From: Patescibacteria group bacterium
GTDB lineage: Bacteria; Patescibacteriota; Microgenomatia; UBA12405
Length of the DNA stretch: 64,000 bases
Assembly (NCBI GenBank): GCA_013387215.1
Contig: WARW01000022.1
Location: 5,357-69,356, forward strand
Reading direction: 5' to 3'
The position numbers and the translations under genes were made by a program. Shown here one piece after another: positions 2,463 through 47,137 of this stretch. Positions within the stretch are counted from its first letter, which is position 1; every line of letters begins with the position of its first letter. The notes below the pieces were generated by a model. That model was given only the letters and a program-made list of their open reading frames with translations. It searched no databases and was not told where the DNA came from.

Positions 2463-2463
2463 A

Positions 2464-5358: not shown

Positions 5359-5362
5359 AGAG

Positions 5363-6058
5363 TTATTTATTTTTTTTGAGAACAAGTTCCCAGCCATAAA
5401 AATAACCTCTTTTCAAGGTTAGTTCTTTTCTAAAAACATTGGCTAAATATGATATTTCTTCTTTTTCTATATATTGAATTCCTCTACCTTTAAAATCAAA
5501 TAAATTTTCAAACCACAACCAATCATCTTCAATGGGAGAACAAGATAATAACTCGAAACCATTTTGGGAAAAAAGTTTAACAATAGAGTCTTTGGTAAGT
5601 TTTTGAATATGTCCTCCACCTTCTGGATGAATCAGGTGATAAAAAATATCTGTAAAATTAGTTGACTCTGGAAAAGCAGCATAAACTATGCCATTTGGCT
5701 TAATAATACTAGTTATTCCCTTAATAAGATTTTCTGGATTAGTCACATGTTCGAGAACATGATTAGCGACAACCATGTCAAATTTTTTGTCCCAATTAAC
5801 AATTCTTTTAAAGAATTTTTTAAAAGGCAGGTTTATATATTTTTCGATTTTATCTTTTGGTTTGATTTCGTGAAGGCAAGATGCGTCAAGCTTGTATATA
5901 TTTACATTTTTAGGAAAATGTTTCGGAAAGAAATAAAGATCTATTCCTGTAATCTTGGCTTTTTGATCAATTAATGACCACCAGTGACTTCCGTTTGGTC
6001 CTGTGCCAATATCAAATATATTTTGTTTATTTTTTAAATATTTTTTTATGCCTATCAT
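5363..6058 (-). CDS. Class I SAM-dependent methyltransferase
   Basis: DIGTGPNG is motif I and VVANHVLEHV is the post-I acidic/hydrophobic motif typical of Methyltransf_11/23. The stop overlaps the upstream fusion gene by 4 nt. Confidence 0.7.
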   Translation of the reverse strand: MIGIKKYLKNKQNIFDIGTGPNGSHWWSLIDQKAKITGIDLYFFPKHFPKNVNIYKLDASCLHEIKPKDKIEKYINLPFKKFFKRIVNWDKKFDMVVANHVLEHVTNPENLIKGITSIIKPNGIVYAAFPESTNFTDIFYHLIHPEGGGHIQKLTKDSIVKLFSQNGFELLSCSPIEDDWLWFENLFDFKGRGIQYIEKEEISYLANVFRKELTLKRGYFYGWELVLKKNK

Positions 6059-17923: not shown

Positions 17924-19483
17924 TGTTTTTATTCTTATTTTAGAAATAGTGGATTTTTGGTTAATTAATTCTTGAATCAGAAATTTGAATTGGTGAACAT
18001 AATTCATCTTTCTTTTTGATCTTAAGACGATTGATAAATATCGAGGGCTTAAATGAAAAATAATATTTGGAAGAATTCGATTGAATTTGTTATTTTGAAA
18101 ATTAGACCAAGATAAAATATCAATTTTATGTTTGGAAAATCGATACTTTTGAGGAAATTTCTTAATTAGAAGTGGAGCAGAGGCTAGTTCTAAATATTCA
18201 TTTTTAGAAAAGTGATATGGGCTTTGATCATAAATTTCTGTGCCAGGATATGGAGTAAATACATTTATACTGACGATATCTGGTTTAAGTTTTTCAGTAA
18301 AATGGACTATATCATTTAGGTCTTTTTTGGTTTCATTGGGAAGATTGACTAAAAAGTTAGCAAAAGTCCTTATATGGTATTTTTGGCAAAGTTTAAAAAT
18401 ATTAGTAATCATTTCAACTGATATACCTTTTTTTACATCGTTTAGAGCTTGGTTAGAACCTCTCTCGACACCAAAATCTATTTGTACACATCCAGCTTGG
18501 GACATTATTTTTAATAAATTTTCATTAAGAGTTGAGACTTTTGAAGAACATCCCCAAAGCAAATTAAGTTTTTCTTTTTTGAGAAGAGTACAAAATTCTT
18601 TAACATTGTCTTGATTAATCGTAAAAAGATCATCAATAAAATAAAAACTGTCAATATTATATTTATTATATAAATGTTTAATTTCTTTAATTAAGTTTTT
18701 AGCTGATCTGACACGGGTGTATCTTCCCCCACCATTATAACCACGAAGTTTTTTAGCTACACAAAAAGTGCAAGTTGAAGGGCAGCCTCTTGTTGCCAAT
18801 AGATAGGCAGATCTTAAAAAGCAGCCACGAATAGAATATGGCGAGGCGTTTGAATAATATTCCATATCTATTTGGTCATAGTCGGCATATGAGATTTTGT
18901 CGAGGTCTTCTTGGAGAGGTCTTAATGGTGTTTTAATAATTTGCTTAGTTTTTTTGTCGTTGTAAGCAATACCTTTTATTTGAGAGAAATCTTTTGTTTT
19001 CTTTTTGAGTGCTGTTACTAATTCAAAAAGTGTTTCTTCCCCTTCTCCAATTATTTCAAAATCGACTGGTGTATTTTTTTCGTTAAGTAATTCATCTGGG
19101 TATAGTGTTGGATGAATTCCTCCAATGATAATTGTGGCTTTTGGATTAATTTCTTTTATTTTTTTAGCAAGATTTAGGACTTCAAAATATTCGGGTGTGT
19201 AACATGTTATGCCGTAAATATTGGTAGTATTATTTTTGATTTGTTCGATCATTTCATCTTCAATTGATTGTCGATATTTATCAATTTGATCAAAAAATTT
19301 TTTATCACGGATAACAGTCTTTTCAGTTACATCTATGATTTTACAGGTTAGTTTTTGGTGTTTAAGATATCCAGCTAAATAAATCAAAGCCATTGGTGGA
19401 CGGTAGTGATTAAAACTTCGTGAGGGTGGAGACAACAAAATAATGTCGAAATTTTTTTTCATAATTTTTTTTAAGTGTAACAT
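17903..19483 (-). CDS. B12-binding domain radical SAM protein (class B radical SAM), paralog
   Basis: DIILLSPPS...MALIYLAGYLK is a B12-binding-type N-terminus. ATRGCPSTCTFCVA is Cx3Cx2C. The gene overlaps 16439..17923 by 21 nt in convergent orientation. Confidence 0.8.
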   Translation of the reverse strand: MLHLKKIMKKNFDIILLSPPSRSFNHYRPPMALIYLAGYLKHQKLTCKIIDVTEKTVIRDKKFFDQIDKYRQSIEDEMIEQIKNNTTNIYGITCYTPEYFEVLNLAKKIKEINPKATIIIGGIHPTLYPDELLNEKNTPVDFEIIGEGEETLFELVTALKKKTKDFSQIKGIAYNDKKTKQIIKTPLRPLQEDLDKISYADYDQIDMEYYSNASPYSIRGCFLRSAYLLATRGCPSTCTFCVAKKLRGYNGGGRYTRVRSAKNLIKEIKHLYNKYNIDSFYFIDDLFTINQDNVKEFCTLLKKEKLNLLWGCSSKVSTLNENLLKIMSQAGCVQIDFGVERGSNQALNDVKKGISVEMITNIFKLCQKYHIRTFANFLVNLPNETKKDLNDIVHFTEKLKPDIVSINVFTPYPGTEIYDQSPYHFSKNEYLELASAPLLIKKFPQKYRFSKHKIDILSWSNFQNNKFNRILPNIIFHLSPRYLSIVLRSKRKMNYVHQFKFLIQELINQKSTISKIRIKTLNTERF

Positions 19484-19528
19484 AGGCTGATATATTTGTT
19501 GAAAAATATTGTTAGGTTATAATGGCTT
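19484..19528. promoter_or_regulatory. Divergent intergenic region between two class-B radical SAM genes (putative promoters)
   Basis: This is a 45-bp AT-rich gap. The minus-strand radical SAM gene is embedded in an otherwise plus-strand operon, so it needs its own promoter here. Confidence 0.3.
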
Positions 19529-20977
19529 ATGAGTTTGAAAACAAAAAATAATGATGTGGATATAGTTCTAATAAGCAGCCCGATGGTTTTGTATAAAAAC
19601 AAAAAGGATAAAAAAGAAAATTTGAATGAAGATGGAGACGAAAAATCATATTATCCGATAAATATTTTATATTTGACAGCATATTTAGAAAAATTTGGAC
19701 ATAAAGTAAAGATAATCGATGTTTCAATGGAAGGGTTAACTTTGGATCAAGTTGTAAAAAAGGTTGATTTAATAAATCCTAAAATGATTGGAATTTCATC
19801 AATGACAACCAGTATTCAGTCGGCAGTTACTTTGGCAAAAGCTTTGAAAAAGAAAGGTAGAACAATTGGACTTGGCGGTGTTCATTTGACTTGCGATCCT
19901 ACTTTTATAGATCGATTTCCAGTGTTTGATTGGGGAATTGTTGGAGAAGGTGAAGTTACATTATTGGAACTAGTTGAAAAAAGTAAAAAAGGAGAAAAGA
20001 TTAAAGGATTATTTCAAGGAAAAAGAATTGAGGATTTAGACACAATCCCTTTCCCTGCTCGACATCATGTGAGAATGGAAGATTATCGTAGAAATGAAGA
20101 ATCTGAAGTGCCAGCTGCAGGAATATTGGCTAGCCGAGGATGTCCTTACAACTGTGTTTTTTGCTGTATTCCAGCTAGAGGAAAGATGGTTAGGTTTAGA
20201 TCTCCAAAGAATATTGTCGATGAAATGGAAGAGATTTATGAAGAATGCCAAGGGAAATATTCGTTCGTGGATGATTGTTTTACTATAAATAATAAATGGG
20301 TTTCCGAACTTTGCCAAGAAATAATGGATAGAAAGATGAAGGTTAGTTTTGTGGCTTCAACTAGAGCCGATACTTTAACCTTAGAAATGGCGAAAATGAT
20401 GAAAAAGGCTGGTTGTACTGATTTATTTTTAGGAATCGAAAGCGGTAATGACAAAATAAGAAACGAAGTTATTGGTAAAAGATTAAAATATGAAAATATA
20501 GTTAAAGCTGTAAAAATATGCCGAAAGGTAGGAATATTGTCTAATTTATTTTTAATGGTTGGATTTCCTGGAGAAGGTATAAAAGAAGCATTAGATACGG
20601 TTAGAATTGGTGGAAGAATTAAGGCAGATATTATTGGAATTCATGTGACTATTCCAATGCCTGGTTCAAGAATTTATGACTATGCTATTCAAAATAAATT
20701 AATTCCAAAAGATATTATTGATCGATGGGCAAGTGGTAAATTGGGACGAGTGTGGCGAAGCAATTGGCCATTATTTGTTCCTGAAGGCATGACTTTGAAG
20801 AAATTGTTTTGGATAAAAAGAATCACTTACATGTATTTTTATTTCTCCCCTTTTTGGTGGTATAGAAGAATCAAATTATGGTTCAAATCTAGCAAAATGT
20901 TTTTTGCTGATATGAGAATGATGAAAATTGCTTTTCATGCATTCACAACCGGCGGAACAAAAGGACAGCTATCTTAA
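19529..20977 (+). CDS. B12-binding domain radical SAM protein (class B radical SAM), paralog
   Basis: DIVLISSP...INILYLTAYLEKFGH is a B12-binding-type N-terminus with a K/D/E-rich insertion. ASRGCPYNCVFCCIP is Cx3Cx2C. Confidence 0.8.
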   Translation: MSLKTKNNDVDIVLISSPMVLYKNKKDKKENLNEDGDEKSYYPINILYLTAYLEKFGHKVKIIDVSMEGLTLDQVVKKVDLINPKMIGISSMTTSIQSAVTLAKALKKKGRTIGLGGVHLTCDPTFIDRFPVFDWGIVGEGEVTLLELVEKSKKGEKIKGLFQGKRIEDLDTIPFPARHHVRMEDYRRNEESEVPAAGILASRGCPYNCVFCCIPARGKMVRFRSPKNIVDEMEEIYEECQGKYSFVDDCFTINNKWVSELCQEIMDRKMKVSFVASTRADTLTLEMAKMMKKAGCTDLFLGIESGNDKIRNEVIGKRLKYENIVKAVKICRKVGILSNLFLMVGFPGEGIKEALDTVRIGGRIKADIIGIHVTIPMPGSRIYDYAIQNKLIPKDIIDRWASGKLGRVWRSNWPLFVPEGMTLKKLFWIKRITYMYFYFSPFWWYRRIKLWFKSSKMFFADMRMMKIAFHAFTTGGTKGQLS

Positions 20978-20992
20978 ATGCTATAATTTGAT

Positions 20993-22720
20993 ATGCGTGA
21001 GAAAAAACTTGTTTTGGCTACTGATTATGTGTTGGATGTTGTAGAAAAAACTGGAGTTAAGCATGTTTTTGGTGTTACTGGAGGTGCAATTTCAAATCAA
21101 ATTGACGCATTTTCAAGAAATAATAAAGTTAAATTTATTGCAGTTCAACACGAACAGGCTGCAGCTATGGCTGCTGAAGGATATGCAAGAATAAATGGTT
21201 ATGGAGTGGCAATGGCAACAAGTGGTCCTGGCGGATCAAACATGATTACTGGTATCAGTGGCTGTTGGTTTGATTCAATTCCTACTTTGTTTATAACTGG
21301 ACAGGTGTCAACTTTTGATTTGAAGACAAATGGTGTGAGACAGCGTGGTTTTCAGGAAATTGGAATGTCTGATTTAATGAAACCTATAACTAAATTTTCG
21401 AAACTGATAACTGACCCAAAAGATTTGGCCAAATCCCTAGAAACTGCTATTAAAATCTCAAAAAGTGATCGTTTTGGACCTGTTCATTTAGATTTACCAA
21501 TGGATGTTCAAATGTCTAAAATTGAAGAAGAAAAAATTAATTTAAAAATAGATAGGAAAAAGATTAAAATTAATTTAACTGATACCTTAGGTTTAATTAA
21601 GAATGCAAAAAGACCAGTTTTAATATTGGGAAATGGTGTAAAGCTGGCGGGAGCAGTTAATGAATTTAAAAAATTAGCAGACAAGTTAAATTGGCCAATA
21701 TTGCCTTCTTGGGCCTACGCCGAATTTCAACATAAAAATAGGATTGAGTTGTTTGGAGTTTATGGCAGCAGAGGAGCAAATTTTGTGGTTCAAAATGCAG
21801 ATCTAATTTTGGCAATTGGCACCAGGCTAGATACTAGAATGACTGGCAGCAATCCTAAACAATTTGCTAGAGAAGCTAAAAAAATTATTGTTGATATTGA
21901 TAAAAATGAATTAGAAAAAAAGGTTGTTATTCCTGATGTTGCTTTAAATATTGATGCAAAAGATTTTTTAAGTGAAATAAATAAAAACAAAATAGAGTGT
22001 GGTATCGAAAAAGATTGGTTAAAAAAATGTTTAAGGTGGAAGGATGAGTATCCTTTGGTAACAAAAGAAGCTATTAAAGATAATGTAATTAATCCATATA
22101 ACTTTTGTAGAATACTTTCTGAAGAAGCTGCTGAAGGAGACATTATTACTGCAGATACTGGAGCAAATTTAGCCTGGTTAATGCAATGTTGGAAATTTAA
22201 AAAGAACCAAAACCTTTTTTCATCATTCGGTAACTCACCTATGGGATATTCACTACCTGCTGCAATTGGGGCTTCATTCGCCGCTAATAAACGAGTTATT
22301 TGTACTACTGGTGACGGTGGAATACAAATGAACATTCAAGAATTACAAACTATCGTTAATTATGATTTGCCAATAAAGATATTTGTGTTTAGCAATAAAG
22401 GATACGGCATGATTAGGCAATTTCAAGATTTGTACATGGGTGGTAGACATGAAGCAACATGTGAAGGAGTGCCTGATTTTGCTAAAGTAGCCGAAGCTTA
22501 TGGAATTCAAAGTATAAGAGTGGAAAAGAAAACCCAATTAAGAAAAGCAATAAAGAAAGCATTGGCATCACCAAAAGCATTTTTAGTTGATGTATTAGTT
22601 GAACCAAGTTCTATTATTGAACCAAGGGCAATTTTTGGAAAACCGATTGAAGAACAATCACCTTATTTGCCAGAAAAAGATACTTTAGACCATTTGCTAG
22701 TAAAAAGATGGAAACCTTGA
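20993..22720 (+). CDS. Thiamine-diphosphate-dependent acetolactate-synthase-like enzyme (YerE-like two-carbon branching enzyme candidate)
   Basis: The N-terminal Pyr domain has HVFGVTGGAISNQIDAF...VQHEQAAAMAAEGYAR...TSGPGGSNMITGI. The C-terminal PP domain has TTGDGGIQMNIQEL...FSNKGYGMI (GDG...N ThDP motif). Length is 575 aa. Confidence 0.8.
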   Translation: MREKKLVLATDYVLDVVEKTGVKHVFGVTGGAISNQIDAFSRNNKVKFIAVQHEQAAAMAAEGYARINGYGVAMATSGPGGSNMITGISGCWFDSIPTLFITGQVSTFDLKTNGVRQRGFQEIGMSDLMKPITKFSKLITDPKDLAKSLETAIKISKSDRFGPVHLDLPMDVQMSKIEEEKINLKIDRKKIKINLTDTLGLIKNAKRPVLILGNGVKLAGAVNEFKKLADKLNWPILPSWAYAEFQHKNRIELFGVYGSRGANFVVQNADLILAIGTRLDTRMTGSNPKQFAREAKKIIVDIDKNELEKKVVIPDVALNIDAKDFLSEINKNKIECGIEKDWLKKCLRWKDEYPLVTKEAIKDNVINPYNFCRILSEEAAEGDIITADTGANLAWLMQCWKFKKNQNLFSSFGNSPMGYSLPAAIGASFAANKRVICTTGDGGIQMNIQELQTIVNYDLPIKIFVFSNKGYGMIRQFQDLYMGGRHEATCEGVPDFAKVAEAYGIQSIRVEKKTQLRKAIKKALASPKAFLVDVLVEPSSIIEPRAIFGKPIEEQSPYLPEKDTLDHLLVKRWKP

Positions 22721-23412
22721 TTACTGGAGCTAATGGTTTTATTGGAAGTTATCTTTGTGAAAAATTTCCTGATGCAAAAAAACTAACTCACAAGGATTGT
22801 GACTTAGCTAATTGGCGAGAAGTTGAAAAATTTAATTGGGAAGGTGAAGTAATAATTAATTGTGCTAATTATGGTACTTATGGTGAAGAAAACGCAAATG
22901 GAGTAGAAATAAATATTAGAATGTTGGAAAACTTAAGAAAGCGATGGCCTAATTCTAAAATAATTTCTTTTGGGTCAGGGGCTATGTATGATAAAAGCAA
23001 ACCAATAATTAAGGCTAGTGAGTATGATTTAGTTTCAAATCCAAAAGACAGCTATGGATTATCTAAAAAAATGACAGTGGATATGAGTGATGTGACTTTA
23101 ATAATTTTTGGTTTATTCGCTAAAACCAGATTTGTTAAAGCGGTTTTGGAAAGTATAAAAGAAAATAAACCGGTAGAAATTTTCCAAGATGCTAAGTTCT
23201 CTTGGGTAAACTTAAGTGATTTTGAAAAAATTATAAATTGGGCAATAAAGAAAGGAAGTGGAAGGTATAATCTTTGTGGTTATGATATGTTATTATCAGA
23301 TGTTGCCAAGAAACTTGGAGCTATAAAAATTAAATATTTAAAAAAAGGAATGGCTTTTGAGTATACTGGTAAAGAAAGTCAAATTAAACTAAGTCGATGT
23401 CCAAGTTTTTAA
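22708..23412 (+). CDS. Short NAD(P)-dependent SDR-type sugar reductase/epimerase (RmlD/GDP-fucose synthase/YerF-like)
   Basis: ITGANGFIGSYL is the Rossmann motif and YGLSK is YxxxK. At 234 aa it is compact. It overlaps the upstream gene by 13 nt and the downstream gene by 16 nt. Confidence 0.65.
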   Translation: METLITGANGFIGSYLCEKFPDAKKLTHKDCDLANWREVEKFNWEGEVIINCANYGTYGEENANGVEINIRMLENLRKRWPNSKIISFGSGAMYDKSKPIIKASEYDLVSNPKDSYGLSKKMTVDMSDVTLIIFGLFAKTRFVKAVLESIKENKPVEIFQDAKFSWVNLSDFEKIINWAIKKGSGRYNLCGYDMLLSDVAKKLGAIKIKYLKKGMAFEYTGKESQIKLSRCPSF

Positions 23413-24533
23413 ACTACAACAAAGCAATTTTCGGAAAATCTGAAAAACAAGCGGTGATGAAAGCATTGAATAAAGGTTGGCTGAGTAATGGAATGGACAC
23501 TTTAAATTTTGAAAAAGAATTTGCAGATTGGTGGGGTATTAAATATTCTTTAACTACAAATAGCGGTTCAACTGCAAATTTAGTAGCTCTTCAAGCGTTA
23601 GATTTGCCGAAAGGTTCTGAAGTTATTACGCCTGCCGGTGGTGCTTTTCCAACTACAATTTCGCCTTTATATTATTTAGGGCTAAAACCAGTATTTGTTG
23701 ATATTAAATGTTTGACAATAGATCCTGAAGAAATAGTTAAAGCAATAAGCAAAAAGACAAAAGTTATTTTATTCTCCCACACTTTAGGTCAAATCCCAAA
23801 TATGAAAAGAATTGTTGAGATTGCCAAAAAATATGATTTAAGAATAATGGAAGATTGCTGCGATGCTGTTGGTTCGAAACAGGATGGTAAGATGGTTGGT
23901 ACTTTTGGAGACATAGCCACAATATCTTTTTACCCTGCTCACCACATGACTACTGGTGAGGGCGGAATGGTGATAACTAACAATAGAAAATTGTATAAAA
24001 CAGCAAATAGTATTCGTGATTGGGGAAGAGATTGTGTTTGCAGGGCTGATAATAACAATCCAATGTGTGTTGATCGATATAGAAATCCCCCGTTTGACCA
24101 CCGATATTATTATTCTCGAATTGGACTTAATTTTAAAATGTCTGAAATGCAAGCTGCATTTGGAAGAGAACAATTAAAAAGACTTGATAAATTCATAGAA
24201 ATAAGAAGAAGAAATTATAAAATTTTAGCTGATATATTTAACGAACCATTTGATGAACAAATTTCACCATTTGCATATCCTTTATTATCAAAAAATAAGA
24301 ATAAAATGATGCATGAACTGCAAAAAAGAAATATTGAGAGTCGAGTGATATTTGCAGGCAATATTATTAAACATCCAGCTTTTAAAGATTTGGATTATCG
24401 AGTTGTGGGTGATCTGAAAAATAGCAATATTCTTTTTAAGCAAGGATATTTTGTGGGGGTTGGACCCAACTTGACGATTAACGACATGAAATTTATCGGA
24501 AAATCAATTTTGGAAATTGAAAAAACTTTGTAG
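23397..24533 (+). CDS. DegT/DnrJ/EryC1 family PMP-dependent sugar 3-dehydrase-like enzyme (E1/DdhC/AscC-like; Lys replaced by His; Fe-S cysteine motif)
   Basis: It has the DegT-fold pattern. At the SF..K..GEGG position the sequence reads SFYPAHHMTTGEGG, so His replaces the Schiff-base Lys, as in E1 and ColD. The cysteines are arranged EDCCDA-(57 aa)-CVC-(8 aa)-C, i.e. C-x57-C-x1-C-x8-C, very close to the E1 [2Fe-2S] motif C-x57-C-x1-C-x7-C. Confidence 0.7.
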   Translation: MSKFLNYNKAIFGKSEKQAVMKALNKGWLSNGMDTLNFEKEFADWWGIKYSLTTNSGSTANLVALQALDLPKGSEVITPAGGAFPTTISPLYYLGLKPVFVDIKCLTIDPEEIVKAISKKTKVILFSHTLGQIPNMKRIVEIAKKYDLRIMEDCCDAVGSKQDGKMVGTFGDIATISFYPAHHMTTGEGGMVITNNRKLYKTANSIRDWGRDCVCRADNNNPMCVDRYRNPPFDHRYYYSRIGLNFKMSEMQAAFGREQLKRLDKFIEIRRRNYKILADIFNEPFDEQISPFAYPLLSKNKNKMMHELQKRNIESRVIFAGNIIKHPAFKDLDYRVVGDLKNSNILFKQGYFVGVGPNLTINDMKFIGKSILEIEKTL

Positions 24534-24535
24534 CT

Positions 24536-25540
24536 TTACGCCAACTTTATTATTATTTTAGAAGATATTACCTTGGAATATAGATGAGTTTTAAATTTGT
24601 CAGTAATTTTTCTGAGGATGATTGGCGGTGTCAATAAAGTTATTAAAACCATTAGATAAAATTTTATATTGATAAGGTTTGCTTTTCGGAACTTAACCAG
24701 ATTGATGACTTCTTTTATGTATGAACTAAAAGAACCATAGTTGCGAATCTGAACCAAACCAATATAATTTATTCCGACAAAATCGGAAATAATTATATTT
24801 TTTATTTTTTGAAATCTTTTTTCAAAAAATATTGTGTCCAACATTTCTTTCCAACATACCATCGGAGATTTTTGATATATATTTGACCGGGTGGCGCTAA
24901 AACCTATTCTTACGGCAAGAATATATTCTTTTATAAATATTGCTGGATGATTTTTAAAAATATCCAACCAGGGGTAGGCATGACTAATCCAAGGTTCTTT
25001 GCAAAAATCTATATGGATTAATTCTCTTTTAAGGCATAAACCAGAAAGCTGATCGAGAGAAGAAAAAAGTTTAAATAATTTTTCTTTTGAATCATTTATA
25101 CTAATTAATTCTTCTGTTATTGAACCAATAGTTTGTTTAAGCCGAACTGGTTTTCTATAGTCATAATCGAACCAATAATAAGGCCTTGTAATCACGCCGG
25201 CTTGAGGATTTCGTTTAAGTGCTTCGAAATATAGTTTTAATGTGTTTTTGTCTAATAAGTCATCCCCTGCCATCAAAAAAATATATTGGCCAGTACAATC
25301 TTTAATGCCTCGGTTCAGATTACCAGAATAGCCTAGATTTTTGGGATTTTTATATATTTTTAGACGGGGTTCTTGATATTTTTCTACTATTTTTAGAGTA
25401 TTATCTTTAGAACCATCATCACGAAGAATTATTTTGAAGTCAGTAAATGTTTGGTTCTTAATGGAATTTAGAGTGTCAGTAATCGTTTGGCTATTGTTAT
25501 AAGATGGGACAAATATACTAAAAAATGGTTTTGATTTCAT
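24536..25540 (-). CDS. GT2 family glycosyltransferase
   Basis: FSIFVPSYNNSQTI...FKIILRDDGSKDNT...MAGDDLL contains the D..D(xD) GT-A motifs. Confidence 0.8.
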   Translation of the reverse strand: MKSKPFFSIFVPSYNNSQTITDTLNSIKNQTFTDFKIILRDDGSKDNTLKIVEKYQEPRLKIYKNPKNLGYSGNLNRGIKDCTGQYIFLMAGDDLLDKNTLKLYFEALKRNPQAGVITRPYYWFDYDYRKPVRLKQTIGSITEELISINDSKEKLFKLFSSLDQLSGLCLKRELIHIDFCKEPWISHAYPWLDIFKNHPAIFIKEYILAVRIGFSATRSNIYQKSPMVCWKEMLDTIFFEKRFQKIKNIIISDFVGINYIGLVQIRNYGSFSSYIKEVINLVKFRKANLINIKFYLMVLITLLTPPIILRKITDKFKTHLYSKVISSKIIIKLA

Positions 25541-25551
25541 AATTAATTATA

Positions 25552-26763
25552 TTATTTAGTAAAGACTTGATTGTAAATTTTTTGACACCTAATATCCCAA
25601 GACCAAACCGATTCAATTAAATCAACAGCTTCTTTTGACTTATCAGAATATAATTTTGAATCGGTTGATAGCTTTATAATGTTATTTGAAAACGATTGCT
25701 TGTCACCTATTCTAGTTTTTAACATTCCTTTTGGATAATAAGTTTTTAAAGCTTCAAGGTCAAATGAGACGCCAGGTAATCCCCAGGCCATTGCTTCAGC
25801 AGCTGCCATTCCTCCGCTATCGTAAGTAGCTGGATGAACAACTATTGATGAATTTTTAAAAATATCATATTTTTTTTGACCATCCAAAAAACCAAAAAGA
25901 TCAATATTATTGTTCAATTTTAATTTCTTAATCTTCTTTTTTATATCTGGCAATAATTGACCGTTTCCTATTATTGCTAGCTTAGATTTTGGCTGTATTT
26001 TACATACATATTTCCATATATCGATAAGTTCAAGCACTCCTTTTTGATGGTGAAGTCGACCCATAAAAACAGCTAAATATTTTCTTTTTTTTAAGGCAGG
26101 CGGATGTTCTTTTAAATATAGGTGAGAAAGAGTTATATCAACGCCTCCTTGAATAATAATTACGTGATTAATTTTTCTTTTGTGATTTAAAAATTTGTTG
26201 ACATCAGGTTTAGACGTAACAAAGACGTAATCTGCAAAATGGTATACAAGAAAATAACTTAATCTTTGAGTCAGCCAATAAAAAACACATGTCAAAAATC
26301 TAGAAAATGAAGTTTTGTATGGGTTGTCTTTTGACCAGGGTGCTGGTGCAAACAAATAAAATCCAGCAATCCAAGTTTTTTTTGGATTAAATAATTTTAT
26401 AAAAAATGCAGGCAAGGTATCAGGATAAAAGTCAGATGCAGAATAAATATATGAGTATTTATTAAAAGAATTTCTAAATTTAAAAAGTGATAAAACACCA
26501 AAAAAAGTTCGATTTAATGCATGATAAAAATAATTGCTATTTGAAAAAAGATTTTTAGCTTTTTTTTTGGTACTTGAACAATAGGTTTCAATTAGTGGAT
26601 CATCAACGTATTTTTTTAATAAAGCGATTCCTTCTTCAGCTGCTAAAAGGCCAATTTTTATATTTTTTTTCCAACCTTTAATTAGTTCAATCAGAATACG
26701 GTCGCCACCACTTAGTCCTGAATCTGTGAGATTGTTGTTGGATATAAATAAAATGCTTGGCAT
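25552..26763 (-). CDS. GT4 (GT1-fold) glycosyltransferase
   Basis: FMGRLHHQKG...HPATYDSGGMAAAEAMAWGLPGV is the E-x7-E type GT4 motif region. I placed the start at the internal MPSILFISNN (26763) rather than the ORF-track 26862, because the upstream extension is not GT-like and would otherwise overlap the divergent neighbour. Confidence 0.7.
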   Translation of the reverse strand: MPSILFISNNNLTDSGLSGGDRILIELIKGWKKNIKIGLLAAEEGIALLKKYVDDPLIETYCSSTKKKAKNLFSNSNYFYHALNRTFFGVLSLFKFRNSFNKYSYIYSASDFYPDTLPAFFIKLFNPKKTWIAGFYLFAPAPWSKDNPYKTSFSRFLTCVFYWLTQRLSYFLVYHFADYVFVTSKPDVNKFLNHKRKINHVIIIQGGVDITLSHLYLKEHPPALKKRKYLAVFMGRLHHQKGVLELIDIWKYVCKIQPKSKLAIIGNGQLLPDIKKKIKKLKLNNNIDLFGFLDGQKKYDIFKNSSIVVHPATYDSGGMAAAEAMAWGLPGVSFDLEALKTYYPKGMLKTRIGDKQSFSNNIIKLSTDSKLYSDKSKEAVDLIESVWSWDIRCQKIYNQVFTK

Positions 26764-26794
26764 TATTTGTATTAATGTTGATATATTATAGAGT

Positions 26795-27718
26795 ATGCAA
26801 GAATTTATTGATATCTTAAAGTGTAATGAATGTGGCGGAAGCTTAGAAAAAAAGGGAAACAACTTAATCTGTTTAAAATGCGGTTTTAAATATGGTTATA
26901 CGAATGAAATAATGGAAGCAATGCCTGCTATGACTGGTGAGAAAAAGTTTAGTTGTGATAAGTGGGAGAAGTATTATAAGGATTGGTATAAAGGAAAGGG
27001 TTACTGGGATGAGTTTAATGATGTAAAAGACATGTATCAAAAATATGGAGTTGAACAGATAGAAAGGGAGGCAAAGGTAAATAAAGAGACTATATATTTA
27101 GAAATTGGCTGTGGAACATTTTTTATTGGCCAAATGATGGCAGAAGAATGCGAATTAGTAATTGGAATTGATTTTTCAATGGAATCATTGTTAATTGCCA
27201 GGCAAATGTTAAAAGATAAAGGTATTGATAATTTTTTATTGATACACGGCGATATTTTTAAAATGCCCATTAAAACAGAATCAGTTAATTTAATTTATGG
27301 TGGCGGTGTGATTGAACATTTCGAAAAAACCCAAGAATGTGTTGATGAATATGGAAGAGTAACTAAAAAAGGTGGTGTTGCTTTAAATGCGGTGCCAATA
27401 TTAAATATAGGTGCTTTAACTTATCGACAAATTTGGGGGAATATTCCTGATTTTCCAATACTTAAACAATTAGCAAAATTTATACATATGAAAGTGCTAA
27501 GAGGAAAACATATGCATTTCGGTTATGAATTATCTTTTACTAAAAATAAGTTAATTAAGGTTCACAATAACTCAGGTTTTAGAAAAGTGTGTGTAAAAAG
27601 ATTAGATACACAAATAATGTTGGATTTTATGCCTAAATTCGTAAGACCTTTTTTTAGAAAATTGGCTTTTAGTTCTTCTTTGTTTTGGCCAATGGCACTG
27701 GTTGTGGCTGAAAAATAA
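26795..27718 (+). CDS. Class I SAM-dependent methyltransferase with N-terminal Trm112-like Zn ribbon
   Basis: CNECGG...CLKCGF is the zinc ribbon, LEIGCGTFFIGQ is motif I, and VIGIDFS is the acidic motif II. Confidence 0.7.
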   Translation: MQEFIDILKCNECGGSLEKKGNNLICLKCGFKYGYTNEIMEAMPAMTGEKKFSCDKWEKYYKDWYKGKGYWDEFNDVKDMYQKYGVEQIEREAKVNKETIYLEIGCGTFFIGQMMAEECELVIGIDFSMESLLIARQMLKDKGIDNFLLIHGDIFKMPIKTESVNLIYGGGVIEHFEKTQECVDEYGRVTKKGGVALNAVPILNIGALTYRQIWGNIPDFPILKQLAKFIHMKVLRGKHMHFGYELSFTKNKLIKVHNNSGFRKVCVKRLDTQIMLDFMPKFVRPFFRKLAFSSSLFWPMALVVAEK

Positions 27719-28736: not shown

Positions 28737-30224
28737 TTAAGAAAAGTCCTTTAATTTTTGAATATATTTAATTCCATAATTGGCCAAGAATTTTATATCG
28801 TAGATTGATCTTATGGATAATATTTTTCTTATAATAAATTCTGGATTAATAATACCTTTGAATAGACTTTGAACTAAATTAAATTGTTCTTGTGAAGTTA
28901 AAGATGTTTTAATAATCGGTTGCCGCATGTCATAATCATCCCAATCAGTGGTAAGAAGCAGATTATTGTCTTCACAATATTTAAAAAGCGGGGTGCCAGG
29001 ATATGGAATTACGATAGTGGCTTGCATACTATCGGCTAGACCTTTTTTAAAAATTTGTCTGGCTCTGTTTAATGTTTTTTCGATATCTTTTCTGGATTCC
29101 CAAGGATAGCCAATCATGATGGTAATGTGTGGTTCAAGGTGGGCATTTTTTACAAGCGTAAGAGTGTTGACTGCGTTTTTAACTAATTCGTTTTTGTTAA
29201 TTAAATCAAGAGTTTTTTGATTAGAAGACTCTAATCCATATAAAATAAATCTAAATCCAGCTTTTGACATTAGATTGTATTGTTCTTGATTAAGTGCACC
29301 AAAACGCATATTACAGCCTATTTTTACTTTTTTATTTAATCCTCTTTTAATTAATTCATCGCAAAGTTCTTTAAGCCAGGGACCGACTGGTAATGTGCCA
29401 GAATCATCAAATATTTCTTTTACATTAAAATTATTGACAAGGTTTTCAATCTCAGCGAGAGTATGTTTAACAGAAAAAGATCGAAAAGACTGTCCTGGAA
29501 AAATTGTAGTCCAAGAACAAAATGTACATTTACCCCACCAACAATCTCTTCCGGACATAATATAGGCACCAGGTTTATATTTGTAATTAGTATTGTTATA
29601 GGCGTAAAGATGCCACTTAGTTAGTTTTCGATCAATGATAGGCAGAACATCAAGATTGTGATGTTTTAATGAAAATTTACCAGAATTACAAATTTTATTT
29701 TTATCTCGATACCAAAAACCTGGTGCTAGTGGTTTTTTATTGTATAAATGATCAACTAAATTAGCCAACATAAAATCATAATCGCCACCTGTGAGTATGT
29801 AATCAACTGAAGAATATTTTAATGACTCTTCTGGCAGGGCGGTGACATGATCACCCATTAAAACTATTACGGGTTGAGATTTTTTAGAAAAATTAGCTTT
29901 AATATCTTTTATAATTTGCCAATGTTTTTTAACGACTGGAGTTTTTGTTTCTAAAACAATTATTTTAGGATTTTTATTTACTAATCTTTTAAGCCAAACA
30001 TTATATGAAATTTTTTCAGCAATGGCATCATCCCAAAATATTTTATAACCTTTTTTTTGAAGATATGTTGCAGCATATGCAGGAATAACTGGAAAAATTA
30101 CATTACCAGTGTTGGTCCATTGAAATTGGCGATTTTGAGTTAAAAAAGGTGTTCCTTTAGAGGAATCTAGTGGTGGATATGAAATAGATATTAATATTTT
30201 TTTTGTTGTCAATTTAGCCTCCAA
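28737..30224 (-). CDS. B12-binding domain radical SAM protein (class B), fourth paralog with a variant Cx4Cx2C cluster motif
   Basis: The N-terminal B12-type fold pattern is ILISISYPP...PAYAATYLQKKGY. SGRDCWWGKCTFCSW reads as C-x4-C-x2-C. Downstream it resembles the other three paralogs. Confidence 0.7.
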   Translation of the reverse strand: MEAKLTTKKILISISYPPLDSSKGTPFLTQNRQFQWTNTGNVIFPVIPAYAATYLQKKGYKIFWDDAIAEKISYNVWLKRLVNKNPKIIVLETKTPVVKKHWQIIKDIKANFSKKSQPVIVLMGDHVTALPEESLKYSSVDYILTGGDYDFMLANLVDHLYNKKPLAPGFWYRDKNKICNSGKFSLKHHNLDVLPIIDRKLTKWHLYAYNNTNYKYKPGAYIMSGRDCWWGKCTFCSWTTIFPGQSFRSFSVKHTLAEIENLVNNFNVKEIFDDSGTLPVGPWLKELCDELIKRGLNKKVKIGCNMRFGALNQEQYNLMSKAGFRFILYGLESSNQKTLDLINKNELVKNAVNTLTLVKNAHLEPHITIMIGYPWESRKDIEKTLNRARQIFKKGLADSMQATIVIPYPGTPLFKYCEDNNLLLTTDWDDYDMRQPIIKTSLTSQEQFNLVQSLFKGIINPEFIIRKILSIRSIYDIKFLANYGIKYIQKLKDFS

Positions 30225-33111: not shown

Positions 33112-33938
33112 TATTTTTTATCCCAATCATTTAATAAATTGATTTGACGTTTTGTTTTTTCAAGTTCCCAATATTTGGTGTAAGTAATGGGAAAACGCAA
33201 ACTCGAATAAAAGGAGAAAACAAACCCAGGAAAGCCATCGTAAAATCCTTTATGCCTGAAATAAGTTGATAAAAACCAGTATAAAGGTTTGAATAAATAA
33301 TAATTCATAAAGTTAAAGAAACTTATTTTTGTTTTCTTTTGTTGAAGCTCTTGAGCTAGTAAAGTAGTATATCGATTGTGTCGTAATAGATAATGGGAAA
33401 AAGAAGTGTCAGCATAGTGTTCCAAATCATGTTTTAGCCAACCAACTGTGCCTTTAACTTCAGCTTGTTCGTGTACATCTTTGCATGGCAAGCGGCCGGT
33501 TCCATTTTTATAGAAACGAATCGTTGGATCAGGATACTGCCCACCTTTTTTTAGAAATGAACCGAGAAAATAATTTTTTCTTTTAATCCAAAACCCATTG
33601 TCTTTTATATCGATTGGAGATTTTTCTAAGATGGAAATTATTTCATTTTTCAATTCTTTTGTGACGATTTCATCGGCGTCAAGTTGAAGTATCCAATCAC
33701 TTTTACAGGCATCAATAGCCATATTTTTATTAATATGAAAAATCGGTTTATTAGTGGTTTTAATAATTTTTACTTTCTTATATTTAGAAGATAATTCAAT
33801 AGTTTTATCTTGAGAACTTCCATCGGCAATAACTACCTCATCCACCCAATCAATTACAGCATTGAGACATCTTTGAATATTATTTTCTTCGTTATAAGTA
33901 GCAATTGCAATTGAAATAGTAGCTTTTTTTACTGTCAT
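33111..33938 (-). CDS. GT2 glycosyltransferase
   Basis: ISIAIATYNEENNIQRCL...VVIADGSSQDKT...LDADE. It resembles 55398..56192 and 57104..58039. Confidence 0.8.
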   Translation of the reverse strand: MTVKKATISIAIATYNEENNIQRCLNAVIDWVDEVVIADGSSQDKTIELSSKYKKVKIIKTTNKPIFHINKNMAIDACKSDWILQLDADEIVTKELKNEIISILEKSPIDIKDNGFWIKRKNYFLGSFLKKGGQYPDPTIRFYKNGTGRLPCKDVHEQAEVKGTVGWLKHDLEHYADTSFSHYLLRHNRYTTLLAQELQQKKTKISFFNFMNYYLFKPLYWFLSTYFRHKGFYDGFPGFVFSFYSSLRFPITYTKYWELEKTKRQINLLNDWDKK

Positions 33939-35581
33939 TGTTTTATATAAATATTAAATGCTGGTTGACCGTTCGGAAAATTGATTGTTTTTATTGGACT
34001 TGCACTTACTTGTTCATCACTAGCTACAACTAATGAATTAGAAGATATATTGTTCCAATCAATTTTTTCAAAGTTATATTTATCATAATGCCTAACGGTC
34101 GAAAAACCAAATTGATCAGGAGTAGATAGCTTTATTTCTTTTTGAATAAGTTCAGGCGGGTATTTTGAAAAAAATAAGAAGAGAATATAAGGTTGATCGT
34201 ATTTGTCGGTTATATAGACTTGATTAAAATTTGATTTATTTTGCTCAATATAAGGAACTAGTTGATCGAATCCATATTGCCAAGCAAATGGATATCTTTT
34301 GGCGTAATGTAGAAAATAAGAATCCAAATAAAATGCAATATTATATATATAAAATATGACTAAAATAGGCAATAAAATTGTTTTTAGTTTATATGTTTTA
34401 ATTATTTCTAAAAATTGATAAATACCTAATGACACTAAAACAGATAATGGAATAACCATTGGTAGAGCTCTTAAAGCTGATGGTGCTTGAAAAGTTAATG
34501 ATGAGGCAAGCGGAGCAATTAAAAGCCAAGAAAGAAATAATTTGGTAAAGTTTTTATTTTTAATTAATCTACTGTTTAAAATTATGACTATTCCTAGTAA
34601 TAAGAATGGAAGTTCAAGAATGTACAGCTGCCCCATTTCGGGTACTTTTGATCGGGGAACTTCATCACCGTTTATAAATAAGAAATTAGGATTAAAGTGA
34701 GAAGTATATTTTTCTCCCCATGAAATTAAGTACAAAACTCTTTTGTTGTGGATTATGCGATTAATAAGTTTTACATTGGCATGCTGATTTATTAATTCGT
34801 TGGCACGATTAATTGGACCTTGATCAGCGGTTATACCTACTCCTCCAAAACGAGCAGCCCCTCCACTGTGAAGAAAAGAAGTTAAAACTGGTATTGCTAA
34901 AATAGCGCCTAAGATTATTGGTAAAACAACCTGTGGTAATTTTGATTTGATGAAATTAAATTGAAAAACAAAAAGACTTAATGCTAAAACTGGGGCTACA
35001 ATGCGGACTGAATGATAAATATAGAGTGATAATACAAAAAAACAAATAAAAAGGCTGAAGTTTAATAAAAACCTTTTTTCAATTGACTTAAAGAAAAAGT
35101 AGGTTCCAATAACTAAAAAGGAAAGTGCAGATGATGATTCCCACCCTCCCCGACTAAAGTGTATATGCCATGGAGAGAAAGCTAAGACGGCAGCAGATAT
35201 TAGTGCCAATTTATTATTTTTACTTAATAGCAAAACTAATTTATAAAGGAAATATATTGTTAAAATCGAAAGAATTAAATTAGGCAATCGGACTGCGAGT
35301 GGTGTTAATCCAAGTAATTTAACAAAAGGCAGTACAAGATAAAAATAACCACCTGGTTTAAAATCACCAAAAGATTTGAAATGAAGTGGCCATGATACGC
35401 CATGTTCATCTTTTCCTGTTTGTATAAGTGAATATACGTTGTAACCAATAGCAGCTTCATCTGGATTTAAAGCAGGAGTAGTTCCAATTTGAAAAAAACG
35501 GATAGAAATTGCAGCAATTAAAATTAATATTAAAAGTATGTTTTTATGGATTTTCGTAAGCATAGAAGGTTGAGATACCAT
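33935..35581 (-). CDS. GT-C glycosyltransferase, GT39/GT83 PMT/ArnT-like (PMT_2 family)
   Basis: It is polytopic. The first periplasmic loop carries TTPALNPDEAAIGYNVYSL...HFKSFGDFKPGGY, the DE motif of PMT/ArnT-type GT-C enzymes. The C-terminal domain shares the conserved GY.EA..Y......Y.I....G.PY..LFY..YPP pattern seen across the array. Confidence 0.75.
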   Translation of the reverse strand: MVSQPSMLTKIHKNILLILILIAAISIRFFQIGTTPALNPDEAAIGYNVYSLIQTGKDEHGVSWPLHFKSFGDFKPGGYFYLVLPFVKLLGLTPLAVRLPNLILSILTIYFLYKLVLLLSKNNKLALISAAVLAFSPWHIHFSRGGWESSSALSFLVIGTYFFFKSIEKRFLLNFSLFICFFVLSLYIYHSVRIVAPVLALSLFVFQFNFIKSKLPQVVLPIILGAILAIPVLTSFLHSGGAARFGGVGITADQGPINRANELINQHANVKLINRIIHNKRVLYLISWGEKYTSHFNPNFLFINGDEVPRSKVPEMGQLYILELPFLLLGIVIILNSRLIKNKNFTKLFLSWLLIAPLASSLTFQAPSALRALPMVIPLSVLVSLGIYQFLEIIKTYKLKTILLPILVIFYIYNIAFYLDSYFLHYAKRYPFAWQYGFDQLVPYIEQNKSNFNQVYITDKYDQPYILFLFFSKYPPELIQKEIKLSTPDQFGFSTVRHYDKYNFEKIDWNNISSNSLVVASDEQVSASPIKTINFPNGQPAFNIYIKQ

Positions 35582-37187
35582 TAATTGGACTTAAAGGAAT
35601 AAATTTTGAGAAATTTGGGGAAGTATTTAGATTTTGTCTTAGTATTTCATCATATGAAAAAATGCCCAAGGTGTGGGGAGTGTTTGCTACATATTGATAA
35701 TTAGTTGAACCAAATTTTATATTATCAATACTTTCAACTTTACCAGTATCCCCTGATGAATTTTCAGTTAGCTTAGCCTGTTTTTGATATTCTTGAGGAG
35801 GATATTCGGAGTAAAAAAGGTAGTAAATATATGGTTGTCCATAGAAATCTGTAAAAGCTATATTTTGAAATCTATCTTTATTTTTAATGACATAGTTTGC
35901 CGCTTCTTTATATCCAAATAAAACATCATTTGGTGACTTTTTGAGCATGTGATTTAAATATAAATCTGCGTAATAAGCAAAAGACAATAGATATATAAAA
36001 ATAATAAATGTATAGACAAATTTATTTTTAAATTTATTAAGAAAGAAAAAGATGCCAAGTGAAATAAAATAAACTAAAGGAATGGAAAATGACATCGATC
36101 TGACTGCTTGTATGGAATCACGAGTTAAGGATGCTGGAATTGGTGCTGCTAGTAACCAAAATAAAAAGAAATAATTAATAGGTTCTTTTTTGCTCATCGA
36201 AAGTGAACCAAAAATACCTAATACTAGAAAAATTAAACTTGGGTAAAGTAGTACGCCAATATATGGAGCAGAATTTCTTGGATCTTGCCAATCACCTTCG
36301 AAAATTAAAAATTTAGTAGAAAAATGATTGAAATATCGTAAAAGCGAATTTCTTAAAAAGAATTCTGGTTTACTATAGAATAAATCATAATCGAGTTGGT
36401 TGGTTTCATTAATTATCTCTTGGGTTTCGGTTTGATTTCTAGGATACGACAAAAGGCTTATGACGTTTAGTCGATTTGCATTACTATTAAAGAGTAAGCC
36501 ATAAGCAATAGGTATGGCTAAAAACCCTAGAGGTATGGCGAAATATAAAATTACTATTTTAAGATGTTTTGTAAATATATTTTTAAAATTAATTACAAAC
36601 AAAATAATTATCAATAAAAGACTAATCATTTTGCCGGCTTGATAGGTATATAGAGTTGAGGCAAAAACTAAAGAAGATAATGTTAAAAATATATTTTTCT
36701 TTTTGTTTATGTACTTAAAAAAGAACAATGCTGCTAAAACTAATTCAAAGGTTAAAATATTTGTTTCCCAAGCGGCTTTAGAAAAATGAATATTATACGG
36801 ATTAAATGTTAGTATTAATGCAGAAATTAAGGCAATTTTCTTTGATTTAGGACTAATTTCTTTTACAAGAAAGTAAAGAATTATTGGAGTTAATGATCCT
36901 AATAAGATAGACGGCAAGCGGACTGATAATGCACTTAAACCTAAAATTTTTATAAAAGGAATTGCTAAATAAACGTAAAGCCCAGGTTTGTAGTCGCCAA
37001 ATGATTTAAAGATTAAAGGTAAAAATTTTCCGTATTCATCTTTTGCGGTTTGTATGATTGAAAAGGCGTTGTATCCAAGAGATGCTTCGTCCCACAATAA
37101 AGTTGGATAATTATTGGCTTGATATATCCTGACAATAAAGGCAAGAATAAAAATAATTATTAAAAAGAATTTATTATTTTTGGCCAT
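35544..37187 (-). CDS. GT-C glycosyltransferase, GT39/PMT/ArnT-like (PMT_2), paralog
   Basis: NNYPTLLWDEASLGYNAFSI...IFKSFGDYKPGLY is the loop-1 DE motif. The C-terminus has FGYKEAANYVIKNKDRFQNIAFTDFYGQPYIYYLFYSEYPP. Confidence 0.75.
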   Translation of the reverse strand: MAKNNKFFLIIIFILAFIVRIYQANNYPTLLWDEASLGYNAFSIIQTAKDEYGKFLPLIFKSFGDYKPGLYVYLAIPFIKILGLSALSVRLPSILLGSLTPIILYFLVKEISPKSKKIALISALILTFNPYNIHFSKAAWETNILTFELVLAALFFFKYINKKKNIFLTLSSLVFASTLYTYQAGKMISLLLIIILFVINFKNIFTKHLKIVILYFAIPLGFLAIPIAYGLLFNSNANRLNVISLLSYPRNQTETQEIINETNQLDYDLFYSKPEFFLRNSLLRYFNHFSTKFLIFEGDWQDPRNSAPYIGVLLYPSLIFLVLGIFGSLSMSKKEPINYFFLFWLLAAPIPASLTRDSIQAVRSMSFSIPLVYFISLGIFFFLNKFKNKFVYTFIIFIYLLSFAYYADLYLNHMLKKSPNDVLFGYKEAANYVIKNKDRFQNIAFTDFYGQPYIYYLFYSEYPPQEYQKQAKLTENSSGDTGKVESIDNIKFGSTNYQYVANTPHTLGIFSYDEILRQNLNTSPNFSKFIPLSPINGISTFYAYENP

Positions 37188-47102: not shown

Positions 47103-47137
47103 TAATTGATTTTACAGCAAATGGTAGAATAAGTTTA
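47103..47137. promoter_or_regulatory. Divergent intergenic region (putative promoters)
   Basis: This is a 35-bp gap between divergent genes 45912..47102 (-) and 47138..48787 (+). Confidence 0.25.

Follow-up and report, generated by a model that had tools for sequence, protein, structure and literature searches.

YerE-like enzymes form a subclass of the enzymes that depend on thiamine diphosphate (ThDP), with a role in the sugars of lipopolysaccharides, and the acceptors known for them are exactly the product of the 3-dehydratase E1 (PMC12247030, PMC9306805). Their pairing with E1 and a wide predicted distribution are already known, more than 200 such enzymes having been predicted from gene-cluster similarity (PMC12247030, PMC9306805), and PpYerE and JanthE are solved structures (PMC12247030). 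E1, the mechanism of which has been reviewed, and SpnQ carry a four-cysteine [2Fe-2S] motif that is absent from ColD, and have a histidine in place of the lysine of aminotransferases (PMC8987622). Biocatalysis has an interest in YerE-like enzymes as a route to chiral tertiary alcohols; the sugars that they make in nature are known only from a few Proteobacteria and mycobacteria. Here we describe three overlapping genes, for a YerE-like enzyme, a short member of the short-chain dehydrogenase/reductase (SDR) family and an E1-like protein of the DegT family, in contig WARW01000022.1 of a Patescibacteria group bacterium; "the window" below is the whole stretch of 64 kb that was analysed. On balance, we consider it probable that positions 19529-24533, of which this gene triad forms the 3' end, are an operon for a C-branched 3-deoxy sugar nucleotide in a cell-surface glycan island of Patescibacteria (Candidate Phyla Radiation, CPR). 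The triad consists of the following genes.

20993-22720, plus strand: YerE-like ThDP gene, 575 aa (Pfam TPP_enzyme_N/M/C, E 1e-30 to 7e-45)
22708-23412, plus strand: short SDR gene, 234 aa (Pfam Epimerase/SDR, 57 bits, E 3e-15)
23397-24533, plus strand: E1-like DegT gene, 378 aa (Pfam DegT_DnrJ_EryC1, E 3e-85)

Because all three open reading frames (ORFs) match Pfam domains, we regard them as real genes rather than chance ORFs. An initial annotation had read them as a yersiniose-type module for a branched 3,6-dideoxyhexose, and our re-analysis of the ORFs returned exactly the coordinates it gave, with overlaps of 13 nt between the ThDP and SDR genes (22708-22720) and 16 nt between the SDR and E1-like genes (23397-23412). 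The gene order is thus ThDP-SDR-E1, at the 3' end of a plus-strand unit that begins with a gene for a B12-binding radical S-adenosylmethionine (SAM) enzyme and is flanked on both sides by minus-strand genes. A scan of 19300-25700 returned no terminators and 43 promoter-like sites, where 30 were expected; the DNA is AT-rich.

By its sequence, the DegT protein is a predicted E1/DdhC-type 3-dehydratase of nucleoside diphosphate (NDP)-4-keto sugars, dependent on pyridoxamine 5'-phosphate (PMP) and a [2Fe-2S] cluster. Its best match in the PDB was E1 of Yersinia pseudotuberculosis (3BCX/3BB8, 297 and 293 bits, E about 1e-87), to which it is 41.5% identical. The initial annotation had assigned it to the E1 type from a histidine at the Schiff-base position and from the spacing of its cysteines. 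We found both features as described, namely SFYPAHHMTTGEGG from residue 177 and C155-x57-C213-x1-C215-x8-C224, and HMMER and MAFFT alignments put the histidine and all four cysteines on E1 positions. His182/His183 correspond to E1 His220/His221; 3BB8, which is the H220K mutant of E1, differs at exactly the His182 column. Of the cysteines at residues 105, 154, 155, 213, 215 and 224, the last four correspond to C193, C251, C253 and C261 of E1, which we take to be its [2Fe-2S] ligands, an assignment that reportedly goes back to Agnihotri 2004. The fourth is preceded by one extra residue, and the non-motif C257 of E1 is replaced by Asn. The catalytic His and the four Cys are unchanged in 9 of 9 close relatives. 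We rejected a ColD-type 3-dehydratase, given the Fe-S cysteines and a score of only about 158 bits against ColD structures. The protein scored 380.2 bits against the NCBIfam model RfbH (NF011936), for which the cutoff is 423, and it is about 60 aa shorter than E1, with about 30 N-terminal residues and several internal segments missing. Hence, we describe it as E1-like and not as a strict RfbH orthologue.

The ThDP enzyme appears to belong to the YerE-like clade and not to be an acetolactate synthase (ALS). Its best match in the PDB was 5AHK (334 bits), deposited as 'acetolactate synthase II large subunit' and presumably PpYerE, followed by 8RPH (306 bits), E. coli ALS I (269 bits) and yeast acetohydroxyacid synthase (AHAS, 257 bits). 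8RPH is JanthE (PMC12188165), and the window enzyme has identities of 32-35% with PpYerE and JanthE. When 32 sequences were placed in a neighbour-joining tree with glyoxylate carboligase (Gcl) as its root, the three formed a clade without E. coli IlvB/IlvI, yeast AHAS or Gcl in 200 of 200 bootstraps. They also have in common a C-terminal ...EEQSP tail and a five-residue insertion before GFQE that AHAS lacks. All three domains of such enzymes (N/PYR, the FAD-type middle domain and C/PP) are present, and the cofactor motifs are intact, with Glu53 in HEQ and a GDG440-x25-N468 motif for Mg-ThDP. We predict that the enzyme decarboxylates a 2-oxoacid and that the C4 ketone of an NDP-4-keto-3-deoxy sugar receives the resulting acyl anion.

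These results bear directly on a reading in terms of primary metabolism, in which an ALS for branched-chain amino acids would lie beside an unrelated aminotransferase. Naming speaks for it: the best NCBIfam names for the ThDP enzyme are ALS models, and homologues are publicly annotated 'acetolactate synthase'. However, the enzyme scored 434 against TIGR00118, for which the cutoff is 538, and fell far below cutoff for the remaining ALS models; tblastn with IlvH detected no regulatory small subunit within the window; the tree separates the enzyme from AHAS; the supposed aminotransferase has His for the Schiff-base Lys as well as Fe-S cysteines; and the surroundings are purely glycan-biosynthetic. 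We conclude that a role in amino acid synthesis is effectively refuted, in agreement with the initial annotation, which had placed the enzyme with YerE and not with anabolic ALS.

Since a sequence search of the PDB returned no match for the short SDR, we used structure prediction and a fold search. The AlphaFold (AF2) model, with a predicted local distance difference test score (pLDDT) of 96, was closest in Foldseek to RmlD (dTDP-4-dehydrorhamnose reductases); other close folds were MlghC (GDP-mannoheptose C4 reductase), GDP-fucose synthase and RMD (GDP-4-keto-6-deoxymannose reductase), at template modelling (TM) scores of 0.7-0.8. TGxxGxxG, S90 (in FGSGAMY) and Y116xxxK120 are unchanged across 34 SDR sequences. 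In 4,6-dehydratases, an acidic pair follows the catalytic Ser/Thr. The short SDR has no acid/base pair after its catalytic Ser, and is therefore not a 4,6-dehydratase. Taking model and motifs together, we regard it as a putative keto-sugar oxidoreductase and predict that it acts as the NAD(P)H-dependent ketoreductase of the pathway. The label 'YerF-like', which the initial annotation had used, is a reasonable functional guess: the predicted fold is reductase-like, and the gene overlaps both a YerE-type and an E1-like gene, as expected in the setting of YerF. The family is tiny. A word-indexed search found about 27 homologues of 192-236 aa, and when 1.84 billion cluster representatives were searched with a profile, about three full-length clusters at 50% identity came up, together with fragments, beyond which lies a continuum of RmlD/GDP-fucose-synthase-like proteins of 250-310 aa. 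Among 80 other YerE-like loci, we detected no close relative, the only match being one of 29% identity in locus L066.

We then asked what the window lacks. ORFs of at least 150 aa cover 99.6% of it, with no intergenic gap larger than 361 nt, and all these ORFs were scanned. Pfam, tblastn and Cys-motif searches were all negative for E3 and for an NDP-sugar pyrophosphorylase, both of which had been noted as missing from the start. Specifically, the 64-kb window contains no ferredoxin-type Cys motif and no Pfam FNR or Fer2 match that would indicate an E3; no Pfam NTP_transferase match that would indicate a sugar nucleotidyltransferase; and no tblastn match to 44 NTP-transferases or to HldE, GmhA and GHMP kinase queries. 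CDP-glucose genes of the DdhA/DdhB type and a dedicated E3 (AscD/DdhD) are likewise absent from it. Searching 84 related loci with regular expressions for E3-type/plant-type ferredoxin motifs, we found no E3-like ORF in any of them. E3-independence thus appears to be general in these loci, and the absence of E3 is therefore no argument against E1 chemistry.

To place the triad in context, we compared it with its relatives in cells. The closest are on cellular metagenome contigs, with identities of 66% (L081) and 69% (L084) for the ThDP enzyme, 60% (L087) for the SDR and 68-73% for the E1-like proteins of all three. The order ThDP-SDR-E1 recurs with the same overlaps in L081, L084 and the viral contig pair L082/83, and we therefore consider the triad to be a conserved unit. 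In L087, the overlapping SDR-E1 pair is kept; a short way downstream, on the opposite strand, comes its ThDP gene, a member of another YerE-like subclade, near JanthE. Since the pair is joined there to a YerE-like gene of a different subclade, the ThDP partner must have been exchanged at least once. L087 also has a second short SDR (225 aa) upstream of a CofD-like gene. These features of L087 were noted at 5114-5791 and 11829-13652. Orthologues of a family 2 glycosyltransferase (GT2) of the window, with 56-59% identity, adjoin the triad genes in all three cellular relatives; none was found on phage contigs. A methyltransferase is kept in the same three, and a family 4 glycosyltransferase (GT4) in L081 and L087 (50-62% identity for GT4 and methyltransferase), as are CofD-like, tetratricopeptide repeat (TPR) and radical-SAM genes.

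Looking further afield, we collected 80 GTDB genomes with a YerE-like gene (34-46% identity), and more than 45 of them have an E1-like gene at most 10 kb away. The families found near YerE-like genes were SDRs (66 loci), GT2 (44), NTP-transferase (43), HldE-like (9), PanB-like (9) and GmhA-like (8). In 21 of 84 loci, most of them from CPR, DPANN, Omnitrophota and Elusimicrobia, YerE-like genes have B12-radical-SAM genes nearby. Across the YerE tree, proteobacterial and actinobacterial loci pair an Fe-S E1 with a true glucose-1-phosphate cytidylyltransferase, as in the proteobacterial locus L036 (TIGR02623, 420 bits, cutoff 300); there is none in the subclade of the window. Loci from CPR, DPANN and Omnitrophota have heptose genes (HldE, GmhA) and radical-SAM genes, and their DegT proteins are mostly of the ColD-like or Lys type. 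The subclade of the window sits in this part of the tree, yet is of the Fe-S E1 type. As a separate observation, the nine PanB-like (ketopantoate hydroxymethyltransferase) genes adjoin YerE-like genes, in L008, L020, L027, L031, L041, L043 and L051 among others, and may supply the carboligase with 2-oxoacid donors that are branched or hydroxylated.

The next-closest triads are on uncultured viral contigs, where the E1-like protein is 64-66%, the ThDP enzyme 55-57% and the SDR 45-54% identical to that of the window. These contigs carry portal, terminase and HNH genes, and several are in IMG/VR. Four phage modules adjoin terminase or portal genes.

L082, 7760-13499
L085, 5340-11747
L094, 826-6587
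L088, 733-7136

In L082/83, L085/86 and L094, genes for GmhA (TIGR00441, 166 bits), an HddA-like kinase, a small HAD phosphatase and an NTP-transferase lie directly upstream of the triad. The kinase is a GHMP kinase with the heptose-7-phosphate kinase HddA as its best NCBIfam match, at 148 bits, far below the cutoff of 600. The phage relatives thus suggest an NDP-heptose rather than CDP-glucose as the precursor, and C3-deoxygenation of a GDP-heptose has a precedent in C. jejuni (PMC10440746). For the branched 3,6-dideoxysugar proposed initially, this has two consequences. The yersiniose-like branching logic, which the residues and clade membership of the E1-type and YerE-like enzymes predict, is well supported; the CDP-hexose substrate is not supported, as the only precursor genes linked to this subclade, those in phages, are genes for NDP-heptose.

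Phage modules also vary in their branching enzyme. In L088 and L089, heptose genes precede an SDR-E1 pair and there is no YerE-like gene; L088 has a split transketolase some 1 kb upstream of the heptose genes, and L089 begins too late to include this region. Homologues of the split transketolase (41-49% identity) adjoin E1-like genes in about ten viral contigs in addition to L088. A dehydratase-like SDR with a GSSSEYG motif precedes ThDP-E1 in L091, L095 and L099, and the two transketolase genes and E1 (TK_N-TK_C-E1) in L097; these SDRs are 35-36% identical to an SDR encoded at 2464-3399 of the window. The block SDR-TK_N-TK_C directly adjoins E1-like genes in L097, L117, L135 and L157. Of the best 80 viral E1-like loci, a YerE-like gene is present in about 35 and a split transketolase in about ten. 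Judged from gene content, YerE-like and split-transketolase branching enzymes are apparently interchangeable beside the same SDR-E1 pair.

This variation is relevant to an alternative in which the E1-like protein and the SDR make an unbranched 3-deoxy or 3,6-dideoxy sugar, by 3-dehydration followed by C4 reduction as for abequose/paratose or the dideoxy-heptoses of C. jejuni, with the ThDP enzyme serving another reaction. The SDR-E1 pair is indeed the most constant element; L092, L096 and L098 have an SDR-like gene and E1 with no ThDP gene nearby; the SDR fold resembles C4 reductases; and the C. jejuni pathway provides a model (PMC10440746). On the other hand, in cells and phages alike the three genes overlap and stay together, the ThDP enzyme falls in a clade whose known acceptors are the E1 product (PMC9306805, PMC12247030), and where the YerE-like gene is absent, a split transketolase, another ThDP carboligase, is present. 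We therefore judge an unbranched product to be quite improbable.

A second alternative concerns the direction in which the short SDR works. It could oxidise C4 of the NDP-sugar to the 4-keto form, in which case the 6-OH may be retained, the branch would be left unreduced or be reduced elsewhere, and the product would be a 4-C-acyl-3-deoxy sugar. Phage modules starting from sedoheptulose-7-phosphate have the short SDR as their sole oxidoreductase and no 4,6-dehydratase, and other phage variants carry a different single GSSSEYG SDR in the same module, which suggests that a single SDR performs an obligatory step. The best folds include that of MlghC, a heptose C4 oxidoreductase. Nevertheless, the structures matched best belong to reductases working with free NAD(P)H, a host could supply the dehydratase, and the window itself has a separate dehydratase-like SDR. 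Reduction by the short SDR is the role we prefer, and we regard C4 oxidation as unlikely.

In cultured phages from GenBank, E1-like genes occur in cyanophages, without a ThDP neighbour; the one locus inspected, in S-H68, has dTDP-sugar genes. We found no genuine YerE-like gene in GenBank phages. Their ThDP matches, at 31-34% identity, were rejected as YerE-like, being ALS-like and of host type. We recognised no glycosyltransferase near the phage modules. Phages with such a module may therefore reprogram a surface glycan of the host, or use the sugar otherwise, for example in modification of the virion or DNA.

Based on these data, we propose the following pathway for the window, in which the chemistry of every step, the identity of the acid donor and of the electron donor, and what the SDR does are inferred from the folds, families, catalytic residues, clade membership and gene linkage described above. 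An NDP-4-keto sugar would be made outside the triad, the only candidate for this step in the window being the dehydratase-like SDR encoded at 2464-3399. The E1-type enzyme would then form a PMP Schiff base at C4; as the conserved residues suggest, His182 would abstract the C4' proton, the C3-OH would be expelled, and the ene-intermediate would be reduced in two one-electron steps through a [2Fe-2S] cluster on C155, C213, C215 and C224. The electrons would probably come from a general ferredoxin or flavodoxin system, as for SpnQ. Next, the YerE-like enzyme would decarboxylate pyruvate or a longer 2-oxoacid on ThDP and, as its clade membership predicts, transfer the acyl carbanion to the C4 ketone, giving a tertiary alcohol with an acyl branch. 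The short SDR, judging from its fold and its Ser-Tyr-Lys triad, would reduce the carbonyl of the branch with NAD(P)H. Finally, the conserved GT2 and GT4 would install the sugar; methylation by the B12-radical-SAM enzyme is a speculative addition.

Several points weigh against this pathway. The window has no nucleotidyltransferase, no clear 4,6-dehydratase adjacent to the triad and no reductase partner for E1. The E1-like and ThDP proteins miss the RfbH and ALS equivalog cutoffs, respectively, and therefore both appear to have diverged from characterised enzymes. The nearest folds to the modelled short SDR are C4-ketoreductases and not proven side-chain reductases, and as the sole redox enzyme in phage modules it could make the 4-keto group instead of reducing the branch. 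Lastly, the ThDP tree was built by neighbour-joining with few outgroups.

A more tentative reading, which we consider less likely than not, is that CPR bacteria and their phages have in common a small mobile module for turning a heptose nucleotide into a C-branched 3-deoxy higher sugar. It would combine an Fe-S E1-type 3-dehydratase and the new short SDR with a ThDP carboligase that can be swapped, YerE-like in some cases and a split transketolase in others; phage genes would make the heptose nucleotide from sedoheptulose-7-phosphate, and B12-radical-SAM enzymes would elaborate the sugar in cells. What is new here is the CPR setting, the tiny family of short SDRs, the association with B12-radical-SAM genes, the apparent swap between YerE-like enzyme and split transketolase, and carriage by phages together with a complete heptose-nucleotide pathway. 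The locus extends the logic of E1 and YerE to CPR bacteria, ultra-small organisms with envelopes that are essentially uncharacterised; with it comes a new minimal family of reductases, and it suggests that the ThDP branching enzyme is modular. With seven genes (GmhA, kinase, phosphatase, NTP-transferase, ThDP enzyme, SDR and E1), the phage cassette is compact enough for expression and direct determination of the product.

The 64 kb as a whole is a glycan island, probably serving the cell surface. It contains numerous GT2 and GT4 genes, some nine GT-C-like membrane paralogues, an ABC-2 exporter, a Wzx-like flippase, methyltransferases, four B12-radical-SAM genes and a CofD/YvcK-like gene. Its UDP-GlcNAc 2-epimerase has its best named matches in Patescibacteria, Shapirobacteria and Woesebacteria (65-71% identity); by this single marker, the source is probably a CPR genome of the Microgenomates type. 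The features relevant to the triad are as follows.

362-859, minus strand: TK_pyr part of a split transketolase (Pfam and NCBIfam)
856-1572, minus strand: TK_N part of the split transketolase (Pfam and NCBIfam)
1569-2462, minus strand: SAM methyltransferase, between the split transketolase and the SDR
2464-3399, minus strand: extended SDR of 311 aa with a GSSSEYG motif (Pfam GDP_Man_Dehyd/Epimerase)
8995-9825: radical SAM/SPASM gene
13560-19483: CofD/YvcK-like gene, TPR protein and two B12-radical-SAM genes (Pfam and NCBIfam)
13560-16442: within this group, the CofD/YvcK-like gene, then the TPR protein of 622 aa
16439-17923: B12-binding radical SAM gene
17903-19483: B12-binding radical SAM gene
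19529-20977, plus strand: B12-binding radical SAM enzyme (Pfam B12-binding and Radical_SAM), 15-nt gap to the ThDP gene
24536-25540, minus strand: GT2 glycosyltransferase (Pfam Glycos_transf_2), convergent with the triad
25552-26862, minus strand: GT4 glycosyltransferase (Pfam)
26795-27718, plus strand: SAM methyltransferase (Pfam)
28737-30224: B12-binding radical SAM gene

The radical SAM gene at 19529-20977, upstream of which lies a minus-strand gene, matches no NCBIfam model at cutoff and has a 64%-identical copy in L081; that its product may C-methylate the sugar or its branch is speculation. The GT2 at 24536-25540 is, from its conserved position, the candidate transferase for the product of the triad. 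The SDR at 2464-3399 scored below cutoff against both LegB 4,6-dehydratase (135 bits) and dTDP-glucose 4,6-dehydratase (125 bits) in NCBIfam. No other gene of the window is 4,6-dehydratase-like, and the 4-keto substrate might come from this one; it lies 17 kb from the triad, and the link is weak. Together with the methyltransferase and split transketolase, it makes 362-3399 (minus strand) a possible second sugar-branching module. We considered whether a second E1 gene comes after the split transketolase, where the window ends on the left, and rejected this; the gene there is a GT2 that runs off the edge.

Other parts of the window deserve a brief mention. At 33935-42258 and 45912-53323, we found five tandem membrane paralogues of about 550 aa with GT-C-type matches (PMT_2, PMT, PTPS_related, YfhO), followed by a GT87-like protein, two more PMT_2 proteins and a YfhO-like protein of 759 aa, which for a small genome is an unusually large number of extracytoplasmic glycosyltransferases. 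A fusion protein of 958 aa (6055-8931, minus strand) joins methyltransferase, GT4 and GT2 domains. GC content is about 30%, and GC skew is positive across all 64 kb irrespective of gene strand, with a monotonic rise in cumulative skew.

Finally, we compared the locus with known systems. Split-gene transketolases for which hydroxyacetyl branching has been proposed, in the miharamycin and amipurimycin pathways, are likewise two-gene enzymes encoded beside keto-sugar-forming enzymes (PMC12247030). The pair at 362-1572 resembles them, and the phage relatives set such a pair beside SDR-E1; the miharamycin and amipurimycin genes differ in belonging to nucleoside-antibiotic clusters, and branching by split transketolase is only proposed in both cases. 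SpnQ, from the forosamine pathway of spinosyn, is an E1-type Fe-S 3-dehydratase that has no dedicated E3 and uses general ferredoxin/flavodoxin reductases (PMC8987622), as we suggest for the window; in contrast, its substrate is a TDP-2,6-dideoxy sugar, its genes are in an actinomycete secondary-metabolite cluster and no branching follows. The GDP-3,6-dideoxy-heptose pathways of C. jejuni HS:5/HS:11, with GmhA, HddA, GmhB, HddC, C3-deoxygenation by a DegT-family enzyme and then an SDR (PMC10440746), are like the phage relatives in gene content. They differ in having a dedicated 4,6-dehydratase and no ThDP branching enzyme. The dideoxy-heptose dehydratase of C. jejuni is ColD-like and is not known to carry an Fe-S cluster. 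Compared with the yersiniose A pathway of Yersinia pseudotuberculosis (DdhA-D/E1-E3, YerE, YerF), the window has no cytidylyltransferase, CDP-glucose 4,6-dehydratase or E3; its 234-aa SDR belongs to a tiny separate family; and its E1 homologue is shorter and below the RfbH cutoff. It also differs in its CPR-like host, in its B12-radical-SAM partners and in having close relatives that are phage-borne and heptose-linked. What it has in common with yersiniose A, erwiniose (ErwE/ErwF) and caryophyllose is an E1-type dehydratase, a YerE-clade carboligase and a reductase in a surface-glycan cluster, and the predicted sequence of events is of the yersiniose type, in which formation of a 4-keto-3-deoxy sugar is followed by acyl branching at C4 and lastly by reduction.

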